A stretch of DNA of 64,000 bases from the NCBI GenBank assembly GCA_965216605.1, contig CBDCGG010000002.1, positions 519,871 through 583,870 of the forward strand, read 5' to 3'. Positions 4,370 through 50,775 of the stretch are shown here, one piece after another (positions within the stretch are counted from its first letter, which is position 1; each line of letters opens with the position of its first letter). The notes beneath the pieces were generated by a model. It was not told where the DNA came from. It searched no databases and worked only from the letters and a program-made list of their open reading frames with translations. Source of the DNA: Alphaproteobacteria bacterium. Its GTDB lineage: Bacteria > Pseudomonadota > Alphaproteobacteria > JABAAW01. The position numbers were made by a program, and so were the translations under genes.

Positions 4370-4611
4370 ATCGTCTCTCTTGATTGACTCCCTTGATTGA
4401 CTCCCTTGCATGCGATTCGTTATGACATGCAACAAGCTCGTCCTATTCTAAAACCCAAAACTTCGTTGCGAAAGCCCAGCTTTTTCTGAAAAACAGAAAA
4501 AACGAGTCTTTACGATTCATTTTTGCATTTTAGCTGCTTGAAGTTATCCCCATCTTTTTTAGAAGCCTATTGTATTATAGTAGGCTCGCCCTCTCAATGG
4601 GAGATTTCTTC

Positions 4612-12371: not shown

Positions 12372-12399
12372 TCCCCAATCCCCAATCTGAAGCTCCGCC

Positions 12400-13957: not shown

Positions 13958-14031
13958 GGCGGAGTAGCTCAGTTGGTTAGAGCAACGGAATCATAATCCG
14001 TGTGTCGGGGGTTCAAGTCCCTCCTCCGCTA
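13958..14031 (+). tRNA. tRNA with CAU anticodon (tRNA-Met, or tRNA-Ile2/lysidine)
   Basis: A manual cloverleaf fits: acceptor GGCGGAG/CTCCGCT, D-stem GCTC/GAGC, anticodon stem ACGGA/TCCGT, loop ATCATAA (CAT anticodon) and T-arm GGGGG-TTCAAGT-CCCTC. A T-run follows. Confidence 0.8.
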
Positions 14032-25586: not shown

Positions 25587-27292
25587 TGAGGTTTGCACAA
25601 TGCCAGCCCATCGAGGGGTCTCATTTTCTCTGCTTTGTCTGGGCATTGAAGCATCGTGGGCAAGCGCACGCCGCTCAAACCGCTGTTGTAGTAACGGAAA
25701 AAGGCTTCTGTGTGGTGTTTCATCTGCAGATCGGGCACGACAAACCACCCTCCTTGCCGCTCCGCCTGTCGCACAACTTGCGACAAGGCGACTGCCAGAT
25801 TGCCATGATACATCAGCCTTGCGACGGAGATATAAAGCATGCAGGCAACAACGACAAACACGATAGCTCTTTGCGCACGCGACAAAGAGCGCGACAAAGG
25901 AGATGACTTCTCGTCAGGCGCGAGCAGAAAGACGAGAAAGAGCATCGGCAGCCACCAGTTCTGTGGCGCGTGGCGAGAAGAAAGACCCACCCCGAACGAA
26001 AGAATCGAGACGCCAACCCCTGCCAAAACAAGCAACCCTCCTCGATGACGCACAAAAAACACCAGCGTCAGACACAGAAGTAGCGAGCCGCTAAACAAAG
26101 AGCCGAACCCGTCCAAAAAAGATATAGGGCTCAGCGAAGAAAACGGCGGCAAAGGAGCAGGAACTCTCCAATCTCCTTGCGTTTGTGAAAACAGCCCAAT
26201 CCACCATTCCTCGTATTGCAACCTTTCTAAAAAAACGGGGTTTGCTTCCTCCAAAAAAGCTATCTCTTGTTTCCCTTCGCCGAACACGATAGCAGGATAA
26301 AAAGGATGGACAGGGTTTCCATGCAGGTAAGCGTTCGTCGAGTAAGGGAAGAAGCCGAACAGAGCGACCCCCAAGAGAGCCGCACCACTGCCCAGTCCTG
26401 CAAGGCGGACAAGCGTCTTTCGGCTTGCGCCGCGCCTGACCCCGTAAGCCAGCGCCGTCAGTCCCAAAGCACCCCCGAAGACGAGCCCCGTGAACTTGAT
26501 ATTGATGAGAAATACAAGAAGACACACGATACAAAAGGCTGTCCGTCGCAAGCGTCGTTTGTTTTCCCTTTGAGAGCCTTCTTCGCAGACAAAGCAGAGC
26601 ATCAGCATAAAAACGCTCAAAAGCACGGATACCAAAAAGCCGTCGTTGTAGTTCATAAAAAAACAAGAGAACGCGATGGGGTTGCCAGCAAGTAACGCGG
26701 CGAGAAGATTGCGCTTCGAACGAGATGAAGCACGAGACAAGTGTGGCAGCGTTGCCAAGAAACGCCTTGCGCACAGAAACGCCGCCACGACAGCAATGAC
26801 GGTGAAGACAACGCTAGTCGTAAGGAGTTGTGTCCACACAACAAGCGAGGCAGAAAGCAGCCAGTGCGCTGTGGGATAAGTGTAGGTGATCCAGCTTCTA
26901 GGCTCCCAGTAGGGATTTCTTCCCTCCAACAAGCCAAGGATTGCACGAGCATGGTAGTGGCGAGAATCCCATTCAATATCCGCGAGGAAACTCGCCGCCC
27001 ACACCGCGAGCGCGAATATTGCCAAAACCAGCAATAGGGTTGCGAGCCGTCTCTGCCATTTTTCCTCTCGATGCAGTGCCGCGACCGCTATACCCCACAG
27101 CAGTAGCCCTGTCGGAAAAACCCAACGACCCCTCTCCATATCGATGCCGATGTCCGCAAGCAGAGCAAACGCCGCCGTCATGTACACAATGGGCAGAAAC
27201 AACACCGCCGCTGTCAGCAACAGCTCTTCCACGAAAAAACTCCGTATTCTTCTGACCTGCTCGGCTTTCAGTTTTTTTACTAGGGTTTGCAC
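25583..27292 (-). CDS. Paralog 3 of the tandem polytopic membrane-protein family
   Basis: It has the same architecture. The canonical ATG of paralogs 1 and 2 is replaced by GTA (Val), so a GTG 4 codons upstream is used as the start. Confidence 0.7.
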   Translation of the reverse strand: MQTLVKKLKAEQVRRIRSFFVEELLLTAAVLFLPIVYMTAAFALLADIGIDMERGRWVFPTGLLLWGIAVAALHREEKWQRRLATLLLVLAIFALAVWAASFLADIEWDSRHYHARAILGLLEGRNPYWEPRSWITYTYPTAHWLLSASLVVWTQLLTTSVVFTVIAVVAAFLCARRFLATLPHLSRASSRSKRNLLAALLAGNPIAFSCFFMNYNDGFLVSVLLSVFMLMLCFVCEEGSQRENKRRLRRTAFCIVCLLVFLINIKFTGLVFGGALGLTALAYGVRRGASRKTLVRLAGLGSGAALLGVALFGFFPYSTNAYLHGNPVHPFYPAIVFGEGKQEIAFLEEANPVFLERLQYEEWWIGLFSQTQGDWRVPAPLPPFSSLSPISFLDGFGSLFSGSLLLCLTLVFFVRHRGGLLVLAGVGVSILSFGVGLSSRHAPQNWWLPMLFLVFLLAPDEKSSPLSRSLSRAQRAIVFVVVACMLYISVARLMYHGNLAVALSQVVRQAERQGGWFVVPDLQMKHHTEAFFRYYNSGLSGVRLPTMLQCPDKAEKMRPLDGLALCKPQ

Positions 27293-28956
27293 AATGCCAG
27301 CCCATGGATGGGTATCATTTTCTCTGCCTTTTCAGGGCATTGGGAGAGGGTAGGCAAGCGCACGCCACTAAAGCCGCTGTCGTAGTAACGGAAAAAGGCT
27401 AAAGCCTTCCGTTTCATCAGCAGATCGGGGACAAGGAACCATCCTCCCTGCTGTTCCGCTTGTTTCACAACCCGCATTGTCTTGATTGCTGCCACGCCAT
27501 AAAAATTTGCGCTTTGGAAAGAGTCGTAGCACAAGCAAGCGACAACAGCGAACACCGCGATTCTTTGGGCTCTTTGCGCGCGCGACAAAAGATTTTTCTT
27601 CTCGTCGGGCGCGAGCAAGAAAACAAGAAAAAGTATAGGCATCCACCAGTTTTGCGGCGTGAGGCGGAAATGGAAACTGGCAGATGTCGAGAGAATGGAT
27701 ACCATGATACCTGCCAAAACGAACCACGCTCCTCTGTGTCGCACAAAAAACACCAAGCTCATACACAGAAGCCACGAGCCACCAAAAAGAGGTCCTAGGC
27801 TTGAGATGAAGGATGTGGGACGCAAAGAAGAAAAAGGCGGTAGAGGAGCGAGACGCCACTCGCCGTTCACCGGTTTGGAGAACAGCGAAAGCCACCATTT
27901 CTCGTAATGCGACCTTTTATAAAATTCTGGGGACACAAGGGGACGGGTTATGTCGCTTGTTTTCTTTCCCTTGTCAAAGAAGATTGCGGGGTAGAAGGGA
28001 TTTTTATGTAGCGCAGTGTTCGTCGCGTAAGGGTAGAAGCCGAATAGGGCGACCCCCAAAATAGCAGCCGCACTCCCCAACCCCGCCAGTCGCAAGAGCG
28101 TTGCGCGGCTTGCGCCACGCCGTGCGCCGTAAGCCAGCGCTGTCAGCCCTAAGATGCCGCCGAAGACGAGCCCCGTGAACTTGATATTGACGAGCAACAC
28201 GAGAAGACACACGATATAAACGGCGGCTCGAAGCTGTGTCGTTCGACTTTGCCTCTTGCCTTCCGAGACAAAGCAAAGCATGAGCAAGAAAACACTCAAC
28301 AGCGTCGAGACAAAAAAGCCATCGACACTGTGGACGAAGTAGCACCATATTGCGATGGGGTTGGCAGCGAGCAGGAACGCCAAAACATGACGCCAGAAAC
28401 GGGACAAGTGCTGTAGCGTTGCCAAATAACGCCTTGCGCACAGGAAGGCTGTCAGAACGGACAGAGCCGTGAAAGCAAAGCTCGCGGTGAAAAGTTTTGT
28501 CCATACAATCAGCGAGGAAGAAAGCAGCCAGTGAGCAGCGGGGTAGGTGTAGTAGACATAACGCGTGCCCCAAGTGTTGGGATGACGATAGGGATTTCCT
28601 CCATCCAACAACGCCAAAATAGATTGTGCATGGTAGGTGCGACCATCCCACCCTCTGTCCAAAAAGAAACTCGTAGCCCACGCCGCGAGCGCAAAGCCTG
28701 CCAATAACAGCAACAGCGTTGCCGCTTGTTTGTGCCACCTTTCCTCTCGATGCAGTGCCGCGACCGCAACTCCCCACAGCAGCAACCCCGTAGGAAAAAC
28801 CCAACGACCCCTCTCCATATCGATGCCTATGTCGGAAAGCAGAGCAAATGCCGCCGTCATGTACAAGACAGGCAGAAACAACACCGATGCCGAAAGCAAC
28901 AGCTCTTCCGAGAAAAAACGCCTTGCTCTTCCGATGGAAGCACCTATGGCTTGCAT
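27280..28956 (-). CDS. Paralog 4 of the tandem polytopic membrane-protein family
   Basis: It has the same architecture. A ~230-nt stretch of its 5' end (about 28680-28915) is near-identical to paralog 5 (about 30355-30595). It overlaps both neighbours by 13 nt. Confidence 0.75.
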   Translation of the reverse strand: MQAIGASIGRARRFFSEELLLSASVLFLPVLYMTAAFALLSDIGIDMERGRWVFPTGLLLWGVAVAALHREERWHKQAATLLLLLAGFALAAWATSFFLDRGWDGRTYHAQSILALLDGGNPYRHPNTWGTRYVYYTYPAAHWLLSSSLIVWTKLFTASFAFTALSVLTAFLCARRYLATLQHLSRFWRHVLAFLLAANPIAIWCYFVHSVDGFFVSTLLSVFLLMLCFVSEGKRQSRTTQLRAAVYIVCLLVLLVNIKFTGLVFGGILGLTALAYGARRGASRATLLRLAGLGSAAAILGVALFGFYPYATNTALHKNPFYPAIFFDKGKKTSDITRPLVSPEFYKRSHYEKWWLSLFSKPVNGEWRLAPLPPFSSLRPTSFISSLGPLFGGSWLLCMSLVFFVRHRGAWFVLAGIMVSILSTSASFHFRLTPQNWWMPILFLVFLLAPDEKKNLLSRAQRAQRIAVFAVVACLCYDSFQSANFYGVAAIKTMRVVKQAEQQGGWFLVPDLLMKRKALAFFRYYDSGFSGVRLPTLSQCPEKAEKMIPIHGLALCKP

Positions 28957-30701
28957 AGCACCAACCCATAGACGAGTCTGCGTGTCTCTGCTTTTTCAGG
29001 ACATTGGGGCATAGTAGGCAAGCGCACGCCACTCAAGCCGCTGTCGTAGTAATCGAAAAAGATTTGACTTTCGCTATTTTTAATCTGCGGATCAGGAACA
29101 ATGAACCACCCTCCCTGCCGCTCCACCTTTCGCACAACCCGCGCCGTCTCGATCGATGCCCCACCATAAAATTTGACGCTTTGGATTGAGGCATATAACA
29201 AGCAGGCGACAACGACTAAGATCACGATTCTTTGGGCTCTTTGCGCGCGCGACAAAAGGTTTTTCTTCTCGTCGGGCGCGAGCAGAAAGACGAGAAATAG
29301 CACAGGCAACCACCAGTTCTGCGGCGCGTGGCGAAAAGAAAAACCCACCTCGAACAAAAATATTGAGGCGGCAACCCCTGCCAAAACGAGCCAAGCTCCT
29401 CGGTGTCGCACAAAAAACACCAAGGTCAGACATAAAAGCAAGGCGCCGCTAAACAAAGAGCCGAACCCATAAAGAAAATCTCCGGGTCTAAGTGAAGAAA
29501 AAGGCGGCAAAGGAACGGGATCCCAACCACTTGCTGACCCACTTTTGGAAAACAATGAAATCCACCATTTTTCGTACTGCGATCTTCCTGAAAAGACAGG
29601 GCTTGAATCCTCCCAAAAAACTATCTCTTGTTTCTCTTCGCCGTACACGATAGCAGGATAGAAAGGATGGACAGGGTTGCCATGCAGGTAGGCGTTCGTC
29701 GCGTACGGGTAGAAGCCAAACAGCGCGACCCCCAAGATCGTAGCCGCACTGCCCAGCCCTGCAAGTTGTACAAGCGTCTTTCGACTTGCGCCGCGTCGTG
29801 CGCCGTAAGCAAGCGCTGTCAGCCCTAAGATGCCGCCGAAGACGAGCCCCGTGAACTTGATATTGATGAGAAACACGAGAAGACACGCGATACAAAAGGC
29901 GGCTCTAAGCCGTGTTGTTCGACTTTGCCTCTTGCCTTCCGAGACAAAGCACAACATGAGCAAGAAGACACTCAGTAGCGTGGATACAAGCAAACCATCG
30001 GTATGGTTGGTAAAGAAGCACCATGTTGCGATGGGGTTGGCAGCGAGCAGGAACGCCAAAACATTACGCCAGAAACGAGACAAGTGCTGTAGCGTTGCCA
30101 AATAACGCCTTGCGCAGAAAAACGCCGACAGAGTGGCTACGACCGTAAAGACAAAGCTTACCTCAAACATGTGCGTCCATACGATCAACGAGGCAGAAAG
30201 CAACCAGTGAGCCACAGGGTAGGTCAAAATGACCCACAACTTGAGCCAACTGTTAGGGTGCCGGTAGGGATTGACTCCCTCCAACAAGTCAAGGATTGCC
30301 TGAGAATGGTAGTCGCGAGAATCGTAGTTGTTGTCCAAAAGGAAACTCGTAGCCCACGCCGCGAGCGCAAAGCCTGCCAATAACAGCAACAGCGTTGCCG
30401 CTTGTTTGTGCCACCTTTCCTCTCGATGCAGTGCCACGACCGCAACTCCCCACAGCAGCAACCCCGTAGGAAAAACCCAACGACCCCTCTCCATATCGAT
30501 GCCTATGTCGGAAAGCAGAGCAAATGCCGCCGTCATGTACAAGACAGGCAGAAACAACACCGATGCCGAAAGCAACAGCTCTTCCGAGAAAAATCGCTCG
30601 CCACAAGACGACACGCTCCCTTCCCACGCCTTGACACGGCGTTGTAAAGACGACGAAAGGCGACAGCACGCATCGGCGATTGTTGGCAAAAGATGTTTCA
30701 T
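28944..30701 (-). CDS. Paralog 5 (first in transcription order) of the tandem polytopic membrane-protein family
   Basis: It has the same architecture and a longer N-terminal extension. It starts 48 nt from tRNA-Ser on the opposite strand. Confidence 0.75.
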   Translation of the reverse strand: MKHLLPTIADACCRLSSSLQRRVKAWEGSVSSCGERFFSEELLLSASVLFLPVLYMTAAFALLSDIGIDMERGRWVFPTGLLLWGVAVVALHREERWHKQAATLLLLLAGFALAAWATSFLLDNNYDSRDYHSQAILDLLEGVNPYRHPNSWLKLWVILTYPVAHWLLSASLIVWTHMFEVSFVFTVVATLSAFFCARRYLATLQHLSRFWRNVLAFLLAANPIATWCFFTNHTDGLLVSTLLSVFLLMLCFVSEGKRQSRTTRLRAAFCIACLLVFLINIKFTGLVFGGILGLTALAYGARRGASRKTLVQLAGLGSAATILGVALFGFYPYATNAYLHGNPVHPFYPAIVYGEEKQEIVFWEDSSPVFSGRSQYEKWWISLFSKSGSASGWDPVPLPPFSSLRPGDFLYGFGSLFSGALLLCLTLVFFVRHRGAWLVLAGVAASIFLFEVGFSFRHAPQNWWLPVLFLVFLLAPDEKKNLLSRAQRAQRIVILVVVACLLYASIQSVKFYGGASIETARVVRKVERQGGWFIVPDPQIKNSESQIFFDYYDSGLSGVRLPTMPQCPEKAETRRLVYGLVLCKP

Positions 30702-30749
30702 CGCTCGTCTATGCTAGGGTGGCGTGTGGCTGAAAGGCGAGGGGCTTGC

Positions 30750-30836
30750 GGAGAGGTGCCGGAGCGGTCGAACGGGACGGTCTCGAAAACCGTTGTGCGC
30801 GCAAGCGCACCGAGGGTTCGAATCCCTCCCTCTCCG
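30750..30836 (+). tRNA. tRNA-Ser (CGA anticodon), class II with long variable arm
   Basis: The fold fits manually: acceptor GGAGAGG/CCTCTCC, anticodon stem ACGGT/ACCGT with loop CTCGAAA (CGA anticodon), a variable-arm hairpin GTGCGCGCAAGCGCAC, and T-arm GAGGG-TTCGAAT-CCCTC. Confidence 0.8.
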
Positions 30837-30898
30837 TATCAACTCTCGCCTCAACCCTAGCACAAGAACCAGAGAAGCAAGAATCAGAGAGATAAGCG

Positions 30899-31684
30899 TC
30901 AAAGAGGCAAACGTTTGAAAATTTTCTCTGGAATATTGCGGATGATCGCCATGATCCCGACCCACAGCCACGGCACATAGAGCTGCTCGCGCTTTCGCTC
31001 GATGGCGCGCAAGATAACACGAGCGACATGCTCAGGACTGCTCCACAAAGCACCCTTGCGGAACGAGGCGGTCATCTTCGTAGCCACGAATCCTGGCTTG
31101 ATCGTCTGAATACACAAAGGCGAGCCTGCGCGCGCCAAACGATGACGCAACCCCTGCAAAAAGAGCGCGACCGCACCCTTGCCCGATCCATAGATATAGT
31201 TTGACGCGCGACCGCGATCGCCCGCGACCGAACCAAAAACAGAGATCACACCCCCCCTCTTCTCCATGCGTGCGCTCGCAGCATGAGCCAGCGAGGCAAC
31301 GCTGAGAAAGTTCGTCTCCCAGGCGATGCGCGCCTGTTCAAAGTTTTTCTCGGCGATTTTTTGGTTCGGCAAAACTCCTTGCGCAAGCACAACAACCCCC
31401 AATCCTCCCAAGGCTTTGTGCGCGTGAGCGAGCAAACCGTCGTGCGAGGCGAAGTTGCGCGCCTCGAAACCTTCGATCGCTACAAAACTAGCACCGCGCA
31501 GCGTCAAGTCCTTGGCAAGCCTTGCTAGTCCCTTCTTGTCGCGCGAAAAAAGGCAGAGGCGCGCGCCGCGCACAGCCCACAGGCGCGCCATCGCGCGTGC
31601 TATGTCGGCGTTCGCCCCGAAGATCGCTATATGTTCAGGGCTTTGGTGGTCGGATTTATGGCGCTTAAGATTCTTCGTTGTCAT
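30899..31684 (-). CDS. dprE2: Decaprenylphospho-2'-keto-ribose reductase DprE2-like short-chain dehydrogenase
   Basis: The 261-aa SDR has a Rossmann 'IAIFGANADIARAMA', the catalytic 'YGSGKGAV', and a C-terminus 'IMAIIRNIPEKIFKRLPL' that closely matches Mtb Rv3791 'VMMVLRHIPRSIFRKLPI'. An AAGGAG RBS is present. The track ORF (668 aa) is Arg-rich read-through of another frame; the true start is the internal Met at 31684. Confidence 0.85.
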   Translation of the reverse strand: MTTKNLKRHKSDHQSPEHIAIFGANADIARAMARLWAVRGARLCLFSRDKKGLARLAKDLTLRGASFVAIEGFEARNFASHDGLLAHAHKALGGLGVVVLAQGVLPNQKIAEKNFEQARIAWETNFLSVASLAHAASARMEKRGGVISVFGSVAGDRGRASNYIYGSGKGAVALFLQGLRHRLARAGSPLCIQTIKPGFVATKMTASFRKGALWSSPEHVARVILRAIERKREQLYVPWLWVGIMAIIRNIPEKIFKRLPL

Positions 31685-31719
31685 CGTTTTGCTCCTTTTA
31701 TGTTTGGATTGTCTTTCTG

Positions 31720-33036
31720 TTAAAGCCCGAGTCGCTGCGATTGCCGCGAGGCAAAAAGGGTGTCCGCTTCGACCTTGCGCCGTACGGCACAAAACTCTTT
31801 CCAGCGAGGATAGCCTTTGCGAAAGTTCTTTTTCGAGAGGCGTGCGTCTTTCGTCAGATAGACGCGCCCTCCGACAGCATGCACGAGCGCGTCCAAATTT
31901 TCCAGCAGCTCGAAGACGCGCGCGTTGTTTTGAAAGTCGAGCGCGAGCGTATATCCCTCCTGAGGAAAGGACAGAGGCGACAGCGCGATACCGCGCCCCA
32001 TCGTCTTCAACACGGCGAGAAAAGACCCTTGTCGAGACGCGACGACACGTTGCAAAATCTCTTCGAGCACATAGCACCCGTCTTTTTTTGGCACGACGCA
32101 CTGGTATTGCAAAAACCCGCGCTTGCCGTAAAGACGGTTCCAGTGTCGAATGCCGTCGAGCGGATAGAAGAACTTGTCGTATGCAACGATTCGCTCGATG
32201 GGCTTTGGGGCGCGACACCCGTAGTATAAGGCGTTGAAGGCGCGCACGGAGAGGGGGTTGAGCAGGAAGGAGGGAGCGTTGCAGGGAACAGAGACCAGTC
32301 CTTTTTCTTCGATGCGCCATCCCGCGCGCTCGGCGTGTTCGGCGAGGAAGAGAACACCGCGTCCCATATTTTTGCCTCGTGCGAGACAATCGAGCCACGC
32401 AACCGAGTAGGTTGTCTCGGCATGGTGTTCCAACAACTCGACGAGTTCCTGAAGGTTGCGCGCGCGTTGGCTTGTCTCCAGCATGTATGCGCTCGGCACG
32501 CGCTTCATGCGTAAGGTGAGGTCGATAACAACCCCGACAAGTCCCATCCCGCCGCAGACGGCGTGAAACAGCTCGGCATTCTTGCGCCGCGAGCAGGATA
32601 CGATCGTACCATCCGCGATCATCACGCGCATGTCTTGTATGTGATGAGCAAAGCTTCCTTCTTTGTGATGGTTTTTGCCGTGCACATCGCTGGCGACAGC
32701 TCCTCCCAGCGTCACATGCCTTGTGCCGGGCGAGACGGGCACCGCCCACCCTACAGGCAGGAAGACGCGCAACAGATCGTCGAGCGCAACGCCCGCCAGA
32801 CATCGAAGGTATCCTGTGCGCTCGTCGAAGGCGCTGAGCGTGTCGAAGGCGCGCATGTCGAGGCTGACGGGCGCGAGCGCACAATCGCCGTAGCCGCGTC
32901 CGCAACCCCGTGCGATCAAACGCTCACCGCGTGCACGCGCAGAGCGCAAAACCTCTCGCAAACCTTCCTCCGATGCGGGCGAGACAACCCGTGCCTCCAT
33001 CGAGGGATATCGCCCCCAACCTGCTATGCTCGTCAT
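31720..33036 (-). CDS. dprE1: Decaprenylphosphoryl-ribose 2'-oxidase DprE1-like FAD-dependent oxidoreductase
   Basis: Motifs 'GWGRYP', 'RGCGRGYGD' and 'SPGTRHVTLGGAVASDVHGKNHH' match the DprE1 signatures ('GWGR', 'RGLGRSYGD', '[23 protein letters not shown]'). It is 438 aa. An AAGGAG RBS precedes downstream dprE2 and the two are co-oriented. Confidence 0.9.
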   Translation of the reverse strand: MTSIAGWGRYPSMEARVVSPASEEGLREVLRSARARGERLIARGCGRGYGDCALAPVSLDMRAFDTLSAFDERTGYLRCLAGVALDDLLRVFLPVGWAVPVSPGTRHVTLGGAVASDVHGKNHHKEGSFAHHIQDMRVMIADGTIVSCSRRKNAELFHAVCGGMGLVGVVIDLTLRMKRVPSAYMLETSQRARNLQELVELLEHHAETTYSVAWLDCLARGKNMGRGVLFLAEHAERAGWRIEEKGLVSVPCNAPSFLLNPLSVRAFNALYYGCRAPKPIERIVAYDKFFYPLDGIRHWNRLYGKRGFLQYQCVVPKKDGCYVLEEILQRVVASRQGSFLAVLKTMGRGIALSPLSFPQEGYTLALDFQNNARVFELLENLDALVHAVGGRVYLTKDARLSKKNFRKGYPRWKEFCAVRRKVEADTLFASRQSQRLGL

Positions 33037-33053
33037 AACTTCCTCGCCATCTT

Positions 33054-33155
33054 GGGGATAAATTCCCCTTGGGGATAGATTCCCCTTGGGGATAAATTCC
33101 CCTTGGGGATAAATTCCCCTTGGGGATAGATTCCCCTTGGGGATAAGTTCTCTTT
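33054..33155. repeat. Six tandem copies of a 17-bp unit TTGGGGATA(A/G)ATTCCCC in the dprE1 / UbiA-like divergent intergenic region
   Basis: GGGGATA recurs at 33054, 33071, 33088, 33105, 33122 and 33139 with an exact 17-bp period. Each unit contains the palindrome CCCCTTGGGG and the hairpin GGGGATAAATTCCCC. Confidence 0.85.
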
Positions 33156-33226
33156 ACGCTCGTGCGTTGTCGCGCAACGCTTTTGCGCTTACTATAGGCA
33201 AAAGATAGAGGCAGGGTAGCCTGTTC

Positions 33227-34144
33227 GTGGAGGATGGAGAAAACGCGATGCCAACAACTTTAAAACCGCTGCAAGACAAAAAGACGCGATCCTTATCGCT
33301 CTCTGTGCTTGCGCTGTTGCGCCCTTTGGAATGGAGCAAAGGCGTTTTTGTACTTTTTCCTGCCTTGTTTTATGATATCTCGCTCGTTGTGTGGAAGCCT
33401 GCCTTGTGGGGAGCGGTGCTTGCAAGCTTTGTGCTGTTTTGCCTTGCTGCCTCCGGCGTCTATGTCTTCAACGATCTGTTGGATATTGAACAAGATCGCA
33501 AGCATCCGATCAAGAAACATACGCGACCTCTCGCTTCAGGAGAGATCTCGAAGTCTTGGGCGTGGGGCATTTTTGTTGCGCTGTCGTCTGCCTGCTTTCT
33601 GTTGTCGGCAGCATTTGTGCCTGCGGTGTTTCCCTTTCTTCTCATCTATTGGCTTTTGATGCTTGCGTACAGCGCGAAGTTGAAGCATTGGGCGATCATC
33701 GATCTTTTTGTAATCGCGTTCGGCTTCTGCCTTCGCGTCGAGGCGGGTGCGGCGGCACTCGACGCTCCTGTTTCGCTGTGGATGCTGGCGACGACCTTGT
33801 GTCTTGCGTTGTTCCTTGCTGCCTCCAAGCGAAGGCAAGAGACACTTGCCAACAAGGCGCGCGCGCGGCGGGTGTTGAGCGTCTATTCCGTTCCTTTGAT
33901 CGAACGTTATATGATGATCGCGGCGGTTTGCACGCTGATGTTTTACAGCTTTTTTGCAACCGACATTCGTCCGAAGCTGGGTTATACGATTCCCTTCGTG
34001 CTGTTCGGCTTCTTCCGCTACTTGCTGCTGATCGAGCGTAGCTCTGACAAGGATTCTCCTACTGATCTGTTGTTTTCGGACAAATCTCTTTTGGCGTGCG
34101 TCGTCGTATGGGCGATGTTGTCGATGGTGTTGTTGTGGCACTAG
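33227..34144 (+). CDS. UbiA-family decaprenyl-phosphate 5-phosphoribosyltransferase (Rv3806c/DPPR synthase-like)
   Basis: The 305-aa protein has 'FCLAASGVYVFNDLLDIEQDRKHPIKKHTRPLASG', paralleling Rv3806c 'FSLAASAVYLVNDVRDVEADREHPTKRFRPIAAG'. Further similarity occurs at 'LKHWAIIDLFVI' and 'SKRRQETL'. It is divergent from dprE1-dprE2. Confidence 0.85.
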   Translation: MEDGENAMPTTLKPLQDKKTRSLSLSVLALLRPLEWSKGVFVLFPALFYDISLVVWKPALWGAVLASFVLFCLAASGVYVFNDLLDIEQDRKHPIKKHTRPLASGEISKSWAWGIFVALSSACFLLSAAFVPAVFPFLLIYWLLMLAYSAKLKHWAIIDLFVIAFGFCLRVEAGAAALDAPVSLWMLATTLCLALFLAASKRRQETLANKARARRVLSVYSVPLIERYMMIAAVCTLMFYSFFATDIRPKLGYTIPFVLFGFFRYLLLIERSSDKDSPTDLLFSDKSLLACVVVWAMLSMVLLWH

Positions 34145-34785
34145 AGGAGGGCTGTGAAGCTGTCGCTGCAGAAGTTGCCGAAGAAGTTGCTGTAGCTTTG
34201 GACGAGATTAAAGGCGGCAGGATGATCGTCGTCTCCGACGATGCGCACAGGGAGAACGAGGGCGACTTGATTATGGCAGCGCAATACGCGACCGAGCAAC
34301 AACTCGCCTTTTTCGTGCGTTACACCAGCGGCATCGTCGCCGTGGCGATCTCTGCTGCGCGAGCCGCCTTGTTGCGCTGTCCGCCGATGGTACCTCTCAA
34401 CGAGGCGCCCTTAGCGACAGCCTTCACCGTCTCGCTCGACGGGCGCGAGGGACTGACGACAGGCATTTCTGCCGAAGAGCGTGCAAGAACGATTCGCACG
34501 CTCGCCTGCCCTAGTGCGAAGGCGGAAGATTTCGTCCGCCCAGGGCATGTCTTCCCTCTCATTGCGAAGGAGGGGGGCGTGATCGAGCGCGCGGGACACA
34601 CCGAAGCGGCTTACGACTTGGCGCGACTGGCGGGGGCAGAGCCCGTGGGCGTGCTTGCCGAGATCGTCTGCGACGACGGCAGCGTCGCCAAGGGGCAGGT
34701 GTTGGTAGACTTTGCCCTTGCGCATGGGTTAAAAAAACTTTCGATCGAAAATCTCATTCGCTGGCGGAGGCTCAATCAACGATGA
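34096..34785 (+). CDS. ribB: 3,4-dihydroxy-2-butanone-4-phosphate synthase RibB
   Basis: Motifs '[21 protein letters not shown]', 'RPGHVFPL' and '[14 protein letters not shown]' match RibB. The start is uncertain: the track ORF overlaps the upstream gene by 49 nt, and the true start is probably 34108 or later. Confidence 0.8.
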
Positions 34786-35849
34786 CGCACCCCTTAAAAT
34801 TTCTCATCCTCGCTACAACCCTTCTGTTCCTCTCATCGCCATTTCTAAACGCTAAAGCCAAATCCAAATCCGCACCCCTCAAAATCGTCTCAACCGCAGC
34901 CCCTATACACGCGCTGCTCGTACATCTGACGCACGGCGCACAAAAGCCGCATCTGCTCCTGCCGCCAACCATCATGCCGCACGGCGCAAGACTCACGCCG
35001 TCGCAAGCACGCATTCTGCACAACGCCAACCTGCTCGTGCTTATCGGAGAATCCTTCGCCGCGCTCGAAAGCAACATCAAGCCAAGCGCAACCCGCCACA
35101 TCGTCCGCCTCACAAAGCTGAAAGGAATCACAATCCTGCCCATCGTACCAAAACATGACGAAGAAGAGCATGGTGAAGAGGAGCACGAAGCAGAGGAGCA
35201 TGGAGAAGAGGAGCATGGAGAAGAGGAGCACGGAGCAGAGGAGCACGGAGCAGAGGAGCACGGAGCAGAGGAGCACGAGGCAGAAGAACATGAAGCAGGA
35301 GAGCATCTTCATGAGGGCAGCGTCGATCCGCATGTGTGGCTCGATGTGGAGAACGCTCGTGTGATCGTCAAGCGTCTTGCCGAGATTTTGGCAAAACGCG
35401 ACCCCTCCAACGCCGCGCTGTATCGCAAGAACGCACGCTTGCAAGAGCTCTCTCTGCGTGCGCTCGATCAAGAGGTGCGCGCGCTCGTGCGCGGGATTTC
35501 GACAAGTTCTGTTGCGGCAAAATTTCTCGTGCTTCACGATTCCACCGCCTACTTTACAGCGCGCTATGGCATTCGCGGCAAAGAGCGTCTCTACGCTGCG
35601 CGTCACAACGCCACGCGCGATGGTCTGCGACATACTTTGAATGTGCGCAAAAAGCTGCGTAGCGGAGACTATCGTTGTGTCATCGTGCAACCACAACTGC
35701 CGCGCGAGGTGCGTACACGGCTTTTAGGCTCTGATACGCGGGTTGTTGTCATCGATCCCTTGGGGGCAAAGTTGCCGCAGGACAAGAATTTTTACGCTAG
35801 CTTGTTGATGTCTGTTGCCGAGGGCTTCCGGGAATGCCTTGCTGGCTAG
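34782..35849 (+). CDS. znuA: Zinc ABC transporter substrate-binding protein ZnuA with an unusually long acidic/His-rich loop
   Basis: It has a signal peptide and the cluster A-I SBP fold. The loop 'HDEEEHGEEEHEAEEHGEEEHGEEEHGAEEHGAEEHGAEEHEAEEHEAGEH' is encoded by tandem 18-nt repeats. znuC and znuB follow. Confidence 0.8.
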   Translation: MTHPLKFLILATTLLFLSSPFLNAKAKSKSAPLKIVSTAAPIHALLVHLTHGAQKPHLLLPPTIMPHGARLTPSQARILHNANLLVLIGESFAALESNIKPSATRHIVRLTKLKGITILPIVPKHDEEEHGEEEHEAEEHGEEEHGEEEHGAEEHGAEEHGAEEHEAEEHEAGEHLHEGSVDPHVWLDVENARVIVKRLAEILAKRDPSNAALYRKNARLQELSLRALDQEVRALVRGISTSSVAAKFLVLHDSTAYFTARYGIRGKERLYAARHNATRDGLRHTLNVRKKLRSGDYRCVIVQPQLPREVRTRLLGSDTRVVVIDPLGAKLPQDKNFYASLLMSVAEGFRECLAG

Positions 35850-37549: not shown

Positions 37550-38434
37550 GTGACCGTATCTGCAAACCCCGATCACAATAGAAGGCAAGACGGAACAAAG
37601 GACGAGCCTCCTGATTTCTCTCCCTATTCTACTTCGACCTTCGAGGTCTCCCTCGCTGCAAACGAGGAGGATATCGCCGCGGCGCAGGACTTGCGCTATC
37701 GCGTCTTCTACGAGGAGATGTCCGCCGAACCCACGGCGGAAGCGGCGCGCTGTCGGCGCGAGGTGGATCCCTACGACACGCAAGCCGAGCATCTGCTTAT
37801 CCGCGAGCGCAAACACGGCGCGCTGATCGCCTGCTATCGCCTTATGCGCCGCGCACGTCTGCCGGCAGGCACGCCCTTCTACAGCGAAAGCGAGTTCGAC
37901 CTTTCGCACATGCTGTCGCATCCTTTGGCAGCCGATTCGCTGGAACTTTCGCGCGCCTGCGTTGCCAAGAGTTTCCGCACGATGCGCGTGCCTGCGTTGC
38001 TTCTCAGCGCGATCGGCTACTATATCAAATATCACAACATTCGTATGCTTTTCGGTTGCGGCTCGCTTCAAGGCATCGACCCCGATGCCTTGGCGATGCC
38101 TTTGTCGTGGATGTGGCACCACCACCTTGCCCCTGAGCCCTTGCGCGGCAAAGCGTTGGAGCATCTGTTTGAGCCGATGAACCGCATTAAAAAAGACGAC
38201 CTGACCGCAAAGAAAGCCTTGCACATCATGCCGCCGCTCATCAAGGGCTACCTGCGCATGGGATGCTTCGTCGGCGACGGCGCCGTCATCGACCATCGCT
38301 TCAAGACAACCGACATCCTGCTGGTCTTGCCGATCAGCGACGACTTGATCGATCGCCGCTACTACCGCCGTTATGTTTTAAAGGATGCCGCGCGCAACGC
38401 AACTGCTCGCAACGCCATTCCTACGCAAACCTGA
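37550..38434 (+). CDS. olsB: Ornithine-acyl[ACP] N-acyltransferase OlsB-like (GNAT-like, hemolysin-like family)
   Basis: A 'LRYRVFYEEM' motif and OlsB-like length are present. It is immediately followed by a PlsC-family acyltransferase, the olsB-olsA arrangement known from rhizobia. Confidence 0.6.
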   Translation: MTVSANPDHNRRQDGTKDEPPDFSPYSTSTFEVSLAANEEDIAAAQDLRYRVFYEEMSAEPTAEAARCRREVDPYDTQAEHLLIRERKHGALIACYRLMRRARLPAGTPFYSESEFDLSHMLSHPLAADSLELSRACVAKSFRTMRVPALLLSAIGYYIKYHNIRMLFGCGSLQGIDPDALAMPLSWMWHHHLAPEPLRGKALEHLFEPMNRIKKDDLTAKKALHIMPPLIKGYLRMGCFVGDGAVIDHRFKTTDILLVLPISDDLIDRRYYRRYVLKDAARNATARNAIPTQT

Positions 38435-38460
38435 CCCCTTTTCAAAGGACAGGAGACCTA

Positions 38461-39357
38461 GTGTTCTGCGAAGCCGATCAGCGAACTCTGTCCTCTCTGT
38501 ACAGCAACGCGCGTTTTCGTGTCTCTTGGGGGAGAATCGTCGTCAAATTGACCTGCATCCTGCTGTTGCTTGTCGCGAACACGATCGTTTTTCTGCCCTT
38601 TGCTTTGTTACGCCGTCTGCCACCTATCGGCTTGCGATCGCTCTTTTATAAAATGTATACGCACATTTTAGGCATCTCGTTGCGCACGCACGGCGCGGTG
38701 GCGGATACATCGCATGTGCTTTATGTTTCGAATCACATTTCTTACATCGACATCGCGGCTCTGATGTCCTTGACGGGCGCACGATTCGTCTCGCGCGGCG
38801 ACATAGCGAGGCTTCCCTTCTTCGGCTGGCTGATGAAACATTACGGCACCGTATTCATCCATCGCACCCGCGTCGATGTTCGAGGACAAATCACCCTGCT
38901 GCATCGTCTTTTGGGCGAGGGCAGCCCTCTGTTGTTGTTCGGAGAAGGCACGACTAGCGACGGCAGAAGTGTCCTGCCCGTCAAGTCCAGCCTTTTTGCC
39001 GCCTTCGAATCGCTCCCCGCGAACAACCTCGCCCTACAGCCCATCAGCCTGCGCTACAGCCTGCTCGACGGAGTGCCGATGAGCACACACTGGGAACCCT
39101 TGTGCGCATGGCACGGCGAAATGTCCTTCTTGCCGCATCTCCGAGAGGTCTTGAGCCTGCATCGCATCACGATCGATGTCTATGTACATCCGTCCACGCC
39201 CATAGCGACAATCCCGACCACACAAAAAAACTTCAAACGAAAAAAAATGGGAAGAAAGGATATGGCACATTTCTGCCAAGAGGAAATTCAAAAGGGATGC
39301 GCGCTGTTGCGCTACTTTGGGCAGGAAGACGCGTCCCCCTTGCTGCCCAAGAAATAG
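38461..39357 (+). CDS. olsA: Lyso-ornithine lipid O-acyltransferase OlsA-like (PlsC/LPLAT family)
   Basis: It has an HX4D motif 'NHISYID' and 'FGEGTTSDG'. It starts at GTG 38461 with an AGGAG RBS 7 nt upstream, in frame with the track ORF 38263. Confidence 0.6.
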   Translation: MFCEADQRTLSSLYSNARFRVSWGRIVVKLTCILLLLVANTIVFLPFALLRRLPPIGLRSLFYKMYTHILGISLRTHGAVADTSHVLYVSNHISYIDIAALMSLTGARFVSRGDIARLPFFGWLMKHYGTVFIHRTRVDVRGQITLLHRLLGEGSPLLLFGEGTTSDGRSVLPVKSSLFAAFESLPANNLALQPISLRYSLLDGVPMSTHWEPLCAWHGEMSFLPHLREVLSLHRITIDVYVHPSTPIATIPTTQKNFKRKKMGRKDMAHFCQEEIQKGCALLRYFGQEDASPLLPKK

Positions 39358-40934
39358 CGCGCGTCGTAGAGTTTGAACCTCTCCCTTACTTTGCCCGCCG
39401 CCCGTCGCTGAATTTTATCCAACAAAACGACGCTGCAAAAGAGATTTTTCACATTTTTTTTGCGCACATAGGCGTGCATCAGCAGCAGGAAATTTTTTCC
39501 TTCCCACTTCTCCAACGAGGGGTAGGCGTAGTGGAACTGGTTAGGCTTGTCGTGCGTGATTTCAGGTGTCGGGTTGCAATCTCCTTGGACGCACGCGCTG
39601 TGCGCCAGCTTCGATACAAGCTGGTATGAGCGACCTGCGATCTCGTGTTGCGGAAAGGAAGCGCGTTGGATATCTACAACTTTTTGATAGACCTCGTCCC
39701 ACCCGTAGACTTGATCGAAGCTGCCCTTCGGCATCCACTTAGCCGATAGCAGCGAGGCTACGAACAGCACGACCAAAAGGCTGCTCGGCAACAAGGCGAG
39801 AAGAACGAGGGGCTTGCGAAAGGTTTTTCTCCATCCCGCGCTGCCCAAAGCGACACACCCCACAGCGAACAGCATGATCGGAAAGATGGCCCAATTGACA
39901 TAGACTCCTTTTTTCCACGCGGTGACCGAGAAGAAAGCCAACACGCACGCGCTGACGAAAAAAACATAGCGTTGTTGGATGGGCAAGCTGCTCCACCCCC
40001 GCTTGCCGCCCCAAACGGAGCGAACAAAGACGAAGCAGAGGGGAATACTCACTGCTATCACGATGGACGCGGCGTATTCCAGCAGGTGTAGCATCCTCTC
40101 TAGAATCGACAGGTTGGAGGTGTTGAGGTGTCGATAGGAAACAAATTGGAAGCTTACCCAGTCGTTGAGGAAGTTCCACGCCACGATGGGTAACAGAGCC
40201 GTGCAAGCGATGAGCAAAGCTCCCCAAGGTGCGAAGTGTCGCAGGCTTCTCCGCGCCTCTGCGTCGAAGAGAACGAAGAGGGCGGAGGCGGCGATCCACA
40301 GCCCTGCCGTGTATTTTCCCAGCAACGAGAGCGCCAAGCCCACTCCTGCGAGTAGCCACCAGCGTGTCTGTTCGTCTTTTTTGCCGTCTTTTTTGTTTGA
40401 AGCTTTTTCGTTTGAATCTTTCAGTGCTCTGACCGCCATCCAAACGGCGAAGAAGGCAAAGGCGGTGCAGCCAACATCGTGCGTCCAAAACGCGAACAAG
40501 GCCCAAAAAGGGAGCGTGCCAAGCAGAAAGACGCTGAAGAGTCCCAGCACTTCGTTCTCGGCTTCGTTTCCCGCCTGTTGAGAAAAAGGCTTGCCGCGTT
40601 CGGAGTGGAGGTCGCAGACGAGGCGCGCTGCGCAATAGGTTGCAAAGAGCCCGAACAATCCGGCTGCCAGTCGCATAACCCACGCCTCGTCGCCGAGCAG
40701 CCACAGAAAAGGAGCCAGAAACCATCCTGTGCCAGGCGCGTTCTCGTAGTAGGAGAGCCGCAACTCCCGTCCCCAAAACCAGTAGTAGGTTTCGTCGTGC
40801 AACAAGCCGCGCGGTAGCAGCAGCGCAAAACGAGCCATCGCCTGCGAAAGCATCACGCTCCAAAACCACAAGGGCAACGAGAGCCAACGTCGCTGTAGAA
40901 CGCTTGAAAAACTCCGCCGTGCAAAAATCGTCAT
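39312..40934 (-). CDS. ArnT/PMT-family (GT39/GT83-like) polyprenyl-phosphate-sugar glycosyltransferase
   Basis: It is a polytopic membrane protein with the first-loop motif 'DETYYWFWG...SYYENAPG' characteristic of ArnT/PMT_2. The start is set at the internal Met (MTIFARR) at 40934. Confidence 0.7.
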   Translation of the reverse strand: MTIFARRSFSSVLQRRWLSLPLWFWSVMLSQAMARFALLLPRGLLHDETYYWFWGRELRLSYYENAPGTGWFLAPFLWLLGDEAWVMRLAAGLFGLFATYCAARLVCDLHSERGKPFSQQAGNEAENEVLGLFSVFLLGTLPFWALFAFWTHDVGCTAFAFFAVWMAVRALKDSNEKASNKKDGKKDEQTRWWLLAGVGLALSLLGKYTAGLWIAASALFVLFDAEARRSLRHFAPWGALLIACTALLPIVAWNFLNDWVSFQFVSYRHLNTSNLSILERMLHLLEYAASIVIAVSIPLCFVFVRSVWGGKRGWSSLPIQQRYVFFVSACVLAFFSVTAWKKGVYVNWAIFPIMLFAVGCVALGSAGWRKTFRKPLVLLALLPSSLLVVLFVASLLSAKWMPKGSFDQVYGWDEVYQKVVDIQRASFPQHEIAGRSYQLVSKLAHSACVQGDCNPTPEITHDKPNQFHYAYPSLEKWEGKNFLLLMHAYVRKKNVKNLFCSVVLLDKIQRRAAGKVRERFKLYDARYFLGSKGDASSCPK

Positions 40935-40959
40935 GCTTGTCCTATGCAAGAGATAGTCT

Positions 40960-41610
40960 TTACCTCCCCTTTGCCTCCCCTTGCGTCCAAGGGGGGGTTG
41001 CCGCCAAAACACGCGCATAGACAGGGCAGGCGCGCGCGTGCGCGTCGGGAAGGTAGCCTGTGCCTGTAAGAAACTCGCCTACGATCTCAACGCCGACAAA
41101 GCGGAAGGTTTGACGAAAAAGCTTGACCCACGCCTCGCGTTCTAAGGGATGATGCTCGTCGAGCCACGCCTTGAACGAGCCGTGTGTCGAGGCAAGCTCG
41201 CTTATTCGCTGGGCGTTGAAAATGGCAGCCTCGATCTTGAGGCGATGGCGAATAATGCTCGCATCCTGCAGAAGACGAGCGATGTCTTGAGCGGCAAACC
41301 GCGCTACGCGCGCGACAGAAAAGTCGGCGTAGGCTTTTTTCAACGCCGCGCGTTTCTTCATAACCGTCAGCCACGAAAGCCCCGCTTGGTTGATTTCCAA
41401 AAGAAGATATTCGAACAGGCGATCGTCGCTCACCACAGGAAAGCCGTGTTCAAAGTCGTGGTGCTGCTGCAACAAAGGATGCGCACGCGCGGCAAGGCAG
41501 TAAGCAGACACAAGAGAAAATAGCCTTGTTAAATCAAGCGCGCGAGCGCAACCCACAACAAAGTCGTCAGCAGGATTGCCAACAACGAGACAACAAGTGC
41601 CTTGCGCCAC
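40960..41610 (-). CDS. tag: DNA-3-methyladenine glycosylase I (Tag)
   Basis: The motif 'DDRLFEYLLLEINQAGLSWLTVMKKR' matches the Tag core (DxxLFExLxLEGFQAGLSW). The N-terminus is atypical and the start is uncertain. Confidence 0.65.
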   Translation of the reverse strand: MAQGTCCLVVGNPADDFVVGCARALDLTRLFSLVSAYCLAARAHPLLQQHHDFEHGFPVVSDDRLFEYLLLEINQAGLSWLTVMKKRAALKKAYADFSVARVARFAAQDIARLLQDASIIRHRLKIEAAIFNAQRISELASTHGSFKAWLDEHHPLEREAWVKLFRQTFRFVGVEIVGEFLTGTGYLPDAHARACPVYARVLAATPPWTQGEAKGR

Positions 41611-50639: not shown

Positions 50640-50775
50640 TGCGCACAGGGGGCGTGGGGAGTTTCCAACCCCCCGCAAAAGACCCCGCGTCAGCGGGGCG
50701 CGTAAGCGCGCTTTTCTAGCGCGTAGCCTCTTATTCAAAAGCGCGAGGGGGGATAAATTCCCCTCGCAGAAACGC
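50640..50775. repeat. Copy C of the ~140-bp dispersed intergenic repeat family
   Basis: It lies between tolB and a convergent downstream gene, where pal would be expected. It shares AAAGACCCCGCGTCAGCG / GCGCGTAAGCGCGC / TAGCCTCTTATTCAAAAGCGC and a GAGGGGGGATAAATTCCCCTCGC hairpin. Confidence 0.8.

Follow-up and report, generated by a model that had tools for sequence, protein, structure and literature searches.

D-Arabinofuranose (D-Araf) is best known from the mycobacterial cell wall, of which it is the building block, and as a drug target in tuberculosis. The mycobacterial decaprenyl-phospho-arabinose (DPA) pathway involves the phosphoribosyltransferase Rv3806c and the enzymes DprE1 and DprE2; it has a fourth step, carried out by an Rv3807c-type 5-phosphatase, and also requires a flippase. 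This study concerns a locus of an alphaproteobacterium in which genes of the same three enzyme families lie side by side, at positions 30899 to 34144 of a 64,000-nucleotide stretch of DNA (contig CBDCGG010000002.1 of assembly GCA_965216605.1, positions 519,871 to 583,870; hereafter the window). The trio is located between ribB and a tandem array of membrane-protein genes, as had been described in an initial annotation of this DNA.

Three-component systems, each consisting of a polyprenyl-phosphate 5-phosphoribosyltransferase (PPPRS), a flippase, and a glycosyltransferase of the GT-C type, are a widespread route for the periplasmic addition of pentofuranoses (Kelly et al. 2024, PMC11127046). 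DprE1/E2 homologs act in them as auxiliary epimerases and are found in loci for Araf-containing glycans, and some systems possess several GT-Cs (PMC11127046). Differing epimerases give differing pentofuranoses; the epimerase for xylofuranose (Xylf) in Citrobacter, for example, is a single short-chain dehydrogenase/reductase (SDR), ORF13, which is unrelated to DprE1/E2 (PMC11127046). In Pseudomonas aeruginosa Pa5196/PA7, the products of PsPA7_6245-6251 and the GT-C TfpW arabinosylate pilin (bioRxiv 2020.04.19.049825). The DprE1 of this organism is 33% identical to that of Mycobacterium tuberculosis, and the DprE1/E2 pair is required for D-Araf addition to pilin; loss of the phosphatase only reduces arabinosylation, and some hosts can do without the GtrA-like protein (bioRxiv 2020.04.19.049825). 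In the rhizobia Azorhizobium caulinodans and Rhizobium sp. IRBG74, the noeCHOP genes (with noeN) are responsible for the arabinosylation of Nod factors, which is only reduced by deletion of noeN (PMC5080398).

The evidence presented here makes it likely that the locus is a polyprenyl-phosphate (three-component) periplasmic pentofuranosylation system, in which five GT-Cs transfer D-Araf. The initial annotation had assigned the three open reading frames (ORFs) to the DprE1, DprE2, and Rv3806c families and proposed that they jointly form a polyprenyl-phosphate-linked D-Araf. The ORFs were found at the positions it gave, with all of the motifs that it quoted, and the family scores, the margins in PDB searches, and the conserved residues support both the identities and, as a prediction from sequence, the chemistry. 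The PPPRS gene (33227-34144, plus strand) is divergent from dprE1 and encodes a protein of 305 amino acids (aa) that contains VYVFNDLLDIEQDRKHPIKKHTRPLASG and carries no HAD domain. Its best NCBIfam match was the decaprenyl-phosphate phosphoribosyltransferase model NF008977 (185.3 bits, E 1.7e-54), and its only PDB matches were the Rv3806c entries 8j8j and 8j8k (E 1.3e-25). Twelve residues of Rv3806c bind phosphoribosyl pyrophosphate (PRPP), the 5-phosphate, or Mg2+, namely R22, K28, Y70, N73, D77, K87, R90, Q135, Y138, K143, Y157, and K208 (PMC10994848). All of these except Q135, Y157, and K208 are identical in the window protein (9/12), and the PRPP- and Mg-binding residues are also kept in all of the Gram-negative homologs examined. 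Y157 is replaced by Phe, which occurs at this position in some mycobacteria too, and K208 by Arg. An alternative ATG at 33248, which would give a protein of 298 aa, may be the true start. The exact 305-aa sequence is absent from the public protein collection, in which the DprE1-like and DprE2-like sequences are present; gene callers therefore probably used another start.

The DprE1-like protein (438 aa; 31720-33036, minus strand) contains the motifs GWGR and ARGCGRGYGD as well as PGTRHVTLGGAVASDVHGKNHH, and carries a PCMH-type FAD-binding domain (Pfam FAD_binding_4, PF01565, E 3.7e-24). It matched the NCBIfam DprE1 model NF053785 with 410.2 bits (E 1.4e-122), its residues 2-438 aligning with positions 3-449 of 449. 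In the PDB search, DprE1 of M. smegmatis and M. tuberculosis was matched over the full length with 255-260 bits, and the next family reached 43 bits. When the protein was aligned by HMMER with M. smegmatis DprE1, to which it is approximately 34.5% identical, the catalytic and substrate-pocket residues corresponding to H132, K134, Q334, Q336, K367, Y415, and K418 (the catalytic Lys) of the M. tuberculosis enzyme were all conserved. Differences are seen at other residues of the substrate pocket: C387 is replaced by Ala (Ala365), N385 by Thr, and Y314 by Phe. Cys387 is the covalent target of benzothiazinones, a determinant of drug sensitivity that is dispensable for catalysis. Because this residue is replaced by Ala, the DprE1-like protein of the window is presumably insensitive by nature to benzothiazinone-type inhibitors.

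The DprE2-like SDR (2-keto-pentofuranose reductase; 261 aa; 30899-31684, minus strand) starts with MTTKNL, 35 nt downstream of dprE1, behind its own AAGGAG ribosome-binding site; a 668-aa ORF (30899-32905) is the same frame over-extended through dprE1, which is read in another frame. Its best PDB match was M. tuberculosis DprE2 (21gq_C, 80.6 bits, residues 15-261), followed by another SDR at 57.7 bits. The resemblance of the C-terminus to Rv3791, which had been pointed out earlier, was borne out: the protein ends in IMAIIRNIPEKIFKRLPL, and the alignment with 21gq_C, which includes the C-terminal IPxxIF+KLP motif, shows VMMVLRHIPRSIFRKLPI in Rv3791. The SDR triad is conserved, S152, Y165, and K169 aligning with S147, Y160, and K164 of the M. 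tuberculosis enzyme, and the protein matched the NCBIfam DprE2 model NF053786 with 151.6 bits (E 2.9e-44). Neither this protein nor the DprE1-like protein shows a signal peptide on inspection, and both are considered cytoplasmic.

Several points weigh against this reading, and the first of them are the scores themselves. None of the three proteins reaches the cutoff of its NCBIfam model, which is 500 bits for NF053785 (an equivalog cutoff), 250 for NF053786, and 234 for NF008977. Two further models bearing the name of NF008977 gave 163.8 bits (cutoff 207) and 118.3 bits (cutoff 474) with the PPPRS, and the top NCBIfam match of the DprE2-like protein was an unnamed SDR model, PRK07102 (260.7 bits, cutoff 267). 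We take the equivalog models for the trio to be built around actinobacterial sequences, and the three proteins are therefore assigned to the wider families, outside the strict equivalogs. Another such point is that Gln135 of Rv3806c, which contacts O3 of the ribose, is Met in the window protein; since this position is occupied by Q, M, N, or T among all of the aligned Gram-negative homologs, it is not diagnostic. Sub-cutoff scores are also the one observation that would suit the view that the trio consists of generic paralogs, i.e., a flavoenzyme of the GlcD or alditol oxidase type, a housekeeping SDR, and a quinone/heme prenyltransferase. This view is scarcely tenable. The generic models (GlcD, lactone oxidase, and xylitol oxidase) gave at most 82 bits with the DprE1-like protein against 410 for DprE1, and those for prenyltransferases of the UbiA, MenA, and CtaB types at most 58 with the PPPRS against 185; in the PDB the DprE1 margin was 260 against 43 bits, and Rv3806c was the sole match of the UbiA-like protein. 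The window possesses its own CtaB gene (18588-19559), distinct from the PPPRS gene, and the trio is linked in many phyla. Compared with both NCBIfam and the PDB, the three proteins clearly did not fall with GlcD or alditol oxidases, generic SDRs, or UbiA, MenA, and CtaB enzymes.

The low scores of the DprE1/DprE2-like pair bear on a second alternative, according to which the pair acts on another substrate or gives another product, such as a modified 2-keto sugar or a different epimer, and the final sugar is not D-Araf. The changed pocket residues of the DprE1-like protein (Thr for N385, Ala for C387, and Phe for Y314) and the production of differing pentofuranoses by differing epimerases (PMC11127046) would be in line with this. 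However, the Xylf epimerase is the unrelated single SDR ORF13, and DprE1/E2 homologs track Araf-containing glycans (PMC11127046); the P. aeruginosa pair is equally distant (33%) and yet required for D-Araf addition to pilin (bioRxiv 2020.04.19.049825); and the catalytic residues of both window proteins are conserved. A product other than D-Araf is thus improbable, and D-Araf remains the predicted sugar.

The putative users of this donor are encoded by the five tandem genes on the same strand as dprE1-dprE2 (22237-30701, minus strand). All five are intact, are 67-74% identical to one another, and are packed with overlaps of 13 nt or gaps of 2 nt. Paralog 5 (28944-30701, 585 aa) is the candidate transferase closest to the donor genes. 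The start of paralog 4 (27280-28956, 558 aa, 72% identical to paralog 5) overlaps the stop of paralog 5 by 13 nt, and the start of paralog 3 (25583-27292, 569 aa for the longest ORF, 69%) overlaps the stop of paralog 4 by the same length; paralog 4 keeps all of the residues that are invariant in the family. Paralog 2 (23904-25748, longest ORF 614 aa, 67%) probably starts at 25586 with MKKLKVEQ, which gives approximately 560 aa and places the start 2 nt past the stop of paralog 3, and paralog 1 (22237-23967, longest ORF 576 aa, 72%) probably starts at 23907, with 556 aa, 2 nt past the stop of paralog 2. An AlphaFold2 model of paralog 5 was confident, with a predicted local distance difference test (pLDDT) score of 87.2 and a predicted template modeling (pTM) score of 0.89, and the top 15 Foldseek matches of this model were all GT-C enzymes, including ArnT, AftA, AftD, AftB, EmbB, and EmbC. 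According to this model, the predicted fold of the five tandem membrane proteins is that of GT-C glycosyltransferases. At the sequence level, Pfam gave only sub-threshold DUF2142 matches (approximately 20 bits, cutoff 30.1) in five of 36 members, a search of the family profile against the PDB found no match, Emb and Aft proteins included, and a GT-C Pfam match was absent in the ten remote family members scanned.

The residues D127, Y131, H132, N144, and P145, in the loop after the third helix, and D235, K282, and R457 are invariant in the family, and D123, in the same early loop, is nearly so. Hydropathy and the positive-inside rule would place the D127-bearing loop in the periplasm, where an early loop of GT-C enzymes carries conserved acidic residues as the catalytic base. 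They also suggest 13 helices with an inside N-terminus and, on the periplasmic side, a small C-terminal domain with two conserved cysteines. Sequence entropy peaks at residues 346-375 of paralog 5, a low-confidence loop, and at residues 511-555 in the C-terminal domain; both regions are predicted to be periplasmic, which would fit differences in acceptor recognition. A word-indexed search, which returned 72 relatives, nearly all of them from this lineage, had suggested that the family is restricted to it. This was withdrawn, as an exhaustive search with the family profile yielded 3,482 representatives of 50%-identity clusters at E ≤ 1e-3, of which 2,108 reached E ≤ 1e-30; only the close relatives (at least 38% identity) are confined to the lineage. 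The family is therefore large, uncharacterized, and without Pfam coverage. Separately, one remote member, P0212 (1062 aa), was observed to carry an N-terminal Acyl_transf_3 fusion. This domain is characteristic of surface-polysaccharide O-acetyltransferases, and the fusion would fit a family that takes part in modifying envelope glycans.

The connection between these GT-Cs and the donor genes was examined through gene linkage. PPPRS and GT-C genes are encoded together in the window, as in three-component systems, and are accompanied by the DprE1/E2 epimerase. They are also neighbors in every relative of the lineage examined (L001, L002, L026, and L029-L033). A point on the opposing side is that ols, znu, ribB, PPPRS, GT-C, and cox genes are all syntenic across the lineage; because the whole region is syntenic, adjacency within the lineage is weak evidence of coupling. 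A further one is the tRNA-Ser(cga) gene (30749-30837; ARAGORN and Rfam), which lies between dprE2 and the GT-C array on the plus strand, opposite to the flanking genes, so that the two groups are probably not one transcript; this landmark, whose place between donor genes and array is conserved, probably splits the transcription units. A promoter scan of 30600-33400 did not find a sigma-70 consensus, and terminator-like sites in this region were no commoner than in shuffled sequence. The tRNA gene and an adjacency that may merely be inherited would agree with a third alternative, in which the trio makes polyprenyl-phosphate-linked D-Araf for another transferase, either the PMT_2-type protein at 39312-41018 or one encoded outside the window, and the array serves another lipid-linked sugar; the GT-C adjacent to the trio in other phyla is of the PMT_2 type, and the PMT_2 protein of the window is encoded 5 kb away. 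Against this, remote members of the array's family adjoin PPPRS genes again. In 18 loci from unrelated metagenomes with GT-C proteins 23-34% identical to those of the window, a PPPRS-like gene lies within approximately 2 kb of the GT-C gene in eight, and in six of the seven in which both flanks are present. These PPPRS-like proteins are 32-35% identical to that of the window (E down to 1e-33), and one of the loci, L040, also has DprE1/E2 homologs. The CtaB-type UbiA gene of the window and its homologs gave no such matches, indicating that the linkage signal is specific to the PPPRS subfamily. Moreover, the GT-C genes lie directly beside the PPPRS gene in relatives without dprE1E2. The recurrent remote linkage supports the view that the product of the PPPRS is used by the GT-C family; a different transferase is unlikely to be the one concerned, and the most likely users of the donor are the tandem membrane proteins.

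In the proposed mechanism, the PPPRS would first form polyprenyl-phosphate-linked ribose 5-phosphate from PRPP, the lipid presumably being undecaprenyl phosphate, and the 5-phosphate would be removed by an unlinked or non-specific phosphatase. The cytoplasmic DprE1-like flavoenzyme would then oxidize C2' of the lipid-linked ribofuranose (Ribf), and the DprE2-like SDR would reduce the 2-keto intermediate to polyprenyl-phosphate-linked D-Araf. Finally, the donor would be flipped across to the periplasmic side, where the five tandem GT-C-fold enzymes may move D-Araf onto one or more envelope glycoconjugates. In two of these steps the set of enzymes is smaller than the initial annotation had held when it called the biosynthetic set complete: neither a 5-phosphatase nor a flippase is encoded in the window. 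When all ORFs of the window were searched by phmmer with a HAD domain and with the DUF212/PAP2 proteins of Legionella, no PAP2, DUF212, or HAD phosphatase was found. A weak match (E 7e-4, approximately 12391-12942) was discounted as PAP2, its sequence looking like that of a small membrane-anchored periplasmic protein. Likewise, no GtrA, SMR, or MATE flippase was found in the window, in which the small ORFs were only partly scanned against Pfam, and the only flippase candidate is an EamA/DMT transporter (14029-14991), 16 kb away. These gaps count on the opposing side at first sight; because phosphatase loss only reduces arabinosylation in P. aeruginosa and rhizobia, and the GtrA-like protein of P. 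aeruginosa can be dispensed with in some hosts, a missing phosphatase or flippase is not evidence against function. The same side also includes the finding that glycan-backbone genes, which could suggest an acceptor, were not found nearby, and the fact that the lineage is uncultured and known from metagenome-assembled genomes alone.

Comparison with relatives showed that dprE1-dprE2 behaves as an optional two-gene module in the lineage. In L026, L029, L030, and L031, in which the GT-Cs are 43-49% identical to those of the window, ribB and the PPPRS gene are followed by one to three GT-C genes and then by cox genes, and dprE1 and dprE2 are absent from the syntenic locus. In the window, L001, L002, L032, and L033, dprE1-dprE2 is located between the PPPRS and GT-C genes. 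The tRNA-Ser gene is found 3' of dprE2 in the window, L001, and L002, and between the PPPRS and GT-C genes in L026; the GT-C copy of L026 at 8013-9712 is split into two ORFs, possibly by a frameshift or a sequencing error. On the basis of gene content, this distribution implies Ribf donors in the relatives without dprE and predicted Araf donors in the clade of the window, and it suggests ribofuranose/arabinofuranose switching by the presence or absence of dprE1-dprE2. An optional epimerase pair agrees with the published view that the pentose is diversified by epimerases (PMC11127046).

The number of GT-C genes also varies, from one (L002) through three (L001) and five (window) to at least eight in L032 (8238-21638) and L033 (8186-21656), two genomes from one sample (ERZ25069837) in which the tandem paralogs follow dprE1-dprE2 and the arrays reach the end of the locus. 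The five window copies form one clade in a neighbor-joining tree computed without bootstrap support, and they differ from one another by a synonymous divergence (dS) of 0.54-0.94, with a ratio of nonsynonymous to synonymous divergence (dN/dS) of 0.26-0.37. Between the window and L001, the flanking genes show a dS of 0.18-0.31 and 91-96% amino-acid identity, whereas the best-matching GT-Cs show a dS of at least 0.58 and at most 71% identity. Recent duplication alone was rejected as the origin of the five copies, as their dS exceeds that of the flanking genes. Gene-wide positive selection was also rejected: the whole-gene dN/dS indicates net purifying selection, relaxed or partly diversifying. 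The array is read as a family shaped by birth-and-death turnover, by conversion between copies, or by exchange of alleles while under net purifying selection, a pattern common among genes for surface glycans; its rapid turnover fits a diversification of such a glycan.

The divergent intergenic region between dprE1 and the PPPRS gene contains a 17-bp tandem repeat, CTTGGGGATAAATTCCC, in 5.9 copies (33051-33150; Tandem Repeats Finder score 179), which begins 15 bp upstream of the dprE1 start codon. Every unit holds the palindrome GGGGA-N5-TCCCC, and as RNA the repeat folds at -52 kcal/mol (z -3.3). A 15-bp motif, GGGGATAAATTCCCC, occurs in five exact copies in the repeat and in single copies at 11864-11878, upstream of a class II ribonucleotide reductase gene, and at 50749-50763, downstream of tolB (0 expected by chance). 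Both single copies are intergenic and lie within a G/C-rich palindromic context, and the motif was absent from all 33 related loci compared. Judging from its sequence, it may represent either a dispersed palindromic element peculiar to this genome or a site for a regulator. At the same spot, relatives carry other repeats: a 12-bp unit, CTTGTCTTTTGA, is present four times in L032 and one to two times in L033, and AACAATCTTG twice in L001, while L002 has none. The PPPRS-proximal element TTTTGCGCTTACTATAGGCAAAA is conserved in all of them, with one base differing in L033. The repeats could conceivably tune or phase-vary the expression of the epimerase.

The distribution of the trio does not agree with the earlier statement, now outdated, that confined the pathway to the cell walls of actinobacteria and to a few glycoconjugates of Gram-negative bacteria. 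With the DprE1-like protein as the query, 7673 of 8000 scored candidates gave a match at E ≤ 0.001. The best 120 matches scored at least 475 bits, and those among them from outside the lineage were approximately 48-54% identical; among the matches listed, the closest from outside the lineage is only 54% identical. Named matches came from Endothiovibrio, Methylococcus, Vibrio, Kiloniella, Halioglobus, and Spirochaetota. In 25 diverse Gram-negative loci recovered from one-genome-per-species contigs, the PPPRS-, DprE1-, and DprE2-like genes are adjacent in approximately 19, and the dprE1-dprE2 pairing recurs in 20. Loci with the trio span Alpha-, Beta-, and Gammaproteobacteria (including Legionella), Bdellovibrionales, and Desulfonatronospira; in a Flavobacteriales locus, PPPRS and DprE1 genes are seen before the recovered sequence ends. 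The neighbor of the trio in these loci is often a PMT_2-type GT-C. As the 5-phosphatase, they have either a PPPRS-fused HAD domain or a divergent PAP2 (DUF212) neighbor. The trio is thus already known and widespread in Gram-negative bacteria, and the window adds another lineage.

The locus belongs to a housekeeping region of the chromosome (cox, ribB, and znu) in a genome of approximately 1.6 Mb; the closest genomes are chromosomes of metagenome-assembled Alphaproteobacteria bacteria of 1.6-1.9 Mb. The Gram-negative context stated in the initial annotation is borne out by TolQ, TolB, a porin, and Lgt, which are encoded elsewhere in the window. An aa3 cytochrome oxidase operon (COX2, COX1) is found downstream of GT-C paralog 1, and ribB, znuABC, an OlsB/OlsA-like pair, a PMT_2-type membrane protein, and tag lie on the other flank. 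The OlsB-like (Acetyltransf_5) and OlsA-like (Acyltransferase) genes stand side by side (37550-39357, plus strand) and keep this position in all of the relatives examined, which suggests ornithine-lipid synthesis. The PMT_2 family gene (minus strand, E 1.3e-15) is conserved beside the OlsA-like gene in L002, and a 437-aa ORF at 4570-5883 (plus strand), with only a faint Dpy19 match (E 0.008), possibly encodes another GT-C-type membrane protein. In the ZnuA gene (34782-35849), an in-frame 15/45-bp tandem repeat at 35160-35306 encodes a His/Glu-rich (EEHG)n segment; His/Glu-rich metal-binding loops are typical of ZnuA proteins. Two class I S-adenosylmethionine (SAM)-methyltransferase-like ORFs with matching domain positions (15051-15818 and 16899-17726, both plus strand) flank cox3, which is on the opposite strand, and L026 and L029 have only one such gene at the cox3 position.

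In sum, another Gram-negative lineage, which is uncultured, alphaproteobacterial, and of small genome size, is predicted to make a lipid-linked D-Araf donor. The trio is of a known kind, and its rarity had been overstated; the features worth attention are the amplification of the GT-Cs, the presence or absence of dprE1E2, and the strain-specific repeat just upstream of dprE1. The linkage to PPPRS genes leads to a testable assignment of a GT-C family with approximately 3,500 representatives, not covered by Pfam, as pentofuranosyltransferases. In addition, relatives with and without dprE1-dprE2 and with one to at least eight GT-Cs form a natural series for the study of surface-glycan diversification by epimerase swap and transferase amplification. 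As a tentative and rather doubtful extension, the array might do more than attach single side-chain sugars and might build an oligo- or poly-D-arabinofuranan, or else a mosaic of epitopes carrying arabinose, on the envelope, as a Gram-negative counterpart of dprE1-dprE2-aftA-embCAB built from an unrelated GT-C family, with Ribf and Araf switchable between strains through gain or loss of dprE1E2 and possibly through the variable repeats upstream of dprE1.

Compared with the described systems, the locus shares parts with each of them. The rhizobial system, likened here by its description, is also alphaproteobacterial, NoeC, NoeH, and NoeO corresponding to steps of polyprenyl-phosphate-arabinofuranose synthesis and a dedicated transferase adding D-Araf; however, its genes belong to nod sets and act on lipo-chitooligosaccharides via NoeP, whereas the window has no nod genes and represents a housekeeping region. 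P. aeruginosa is likewise Gram-negative, with a stand-alone PPPRS (6246), DprE1/DprE2 (6248/6249), and a lipid-linked D-Araf donor used by a GT-C, and the divergence of its DprE1 from that of M. tuberculosis (33%) is similar to that between the window protein and M. smegmatis DprE1. Its cluster has a phosphatase (6245) and a GtrA-like protein (6247), neither of which is found in the window, and its single GT-C gene, tfpW, is unlinked and stands beside pilA, in contrast to five GT-C genes and no pilin gene nearby in the window. The systems of Citrobacter youngae O1/O2 share the logic of a PPPRS that forms polyprenyl-phosphate-linked Ribf from PRPP, an optional cytoplasmic epimerase, and a periplasmic GT-C (PMC11127046). 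In these, ORF15, the PPPRS, carries a fused HAD-type phosphatase and is encoded next to a MATE flippase, both of which the window locus lacks; the epimerase is the single SDR ORF13, giving Xylf, instead of dprE1-dprE2; the GT-C ORF12 (GT136), compared by description only, is single-copy with a C-terminal carbohydrate-binding module; and the window system, for its part, is not embedded in an O-antigen cluster.

The DPA/arabinan locus of M. tuberculosis (Rv3806c, Rv3807c, dprE1 Rv3790, dprE2 Rv3791, Rv3789, and aftA-embC-embA-embB) has the same three enzyme families with the same conserved residues, and its PPPRS is likewise a stand-alone protein of approximately 300 aa without a phosphatase domain. 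The differences are considerable: identities are only approximately 27-35%, the trio lies below all of the equivalog cutoffs, Cys387 is Ala, and no Rv3807c-type phosphatase or Rv3789-type GtrA protein is linked in the window; the host is Gram-negative, and its lipid carrier is presumably undecaprenyl phosphate instead of decaprenyl phosphate. No sequence similarity to Emb or Aft proteins is detectable in the GT-Cs of the window, which measure approximately 560 aa and are without the large carbohydrate-binding domains found at the C-terminus of those proteins, and yet AftA, AftD, AftB, EmbB, and EmbC are among their structural matches. In both organisms, dprE1-dprE2 is followed by several tandem transferases with the GT-C fold, predicted in the case of the window, on the same strand, as in dprE1-dprE2-aftA-embCAB (bioRxiv 2020.04.19.049825). 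The layout of the alphaproteobacterial locus thus resembles the mycobacterial one, with transferases drawn from an unrelated GT-C family.

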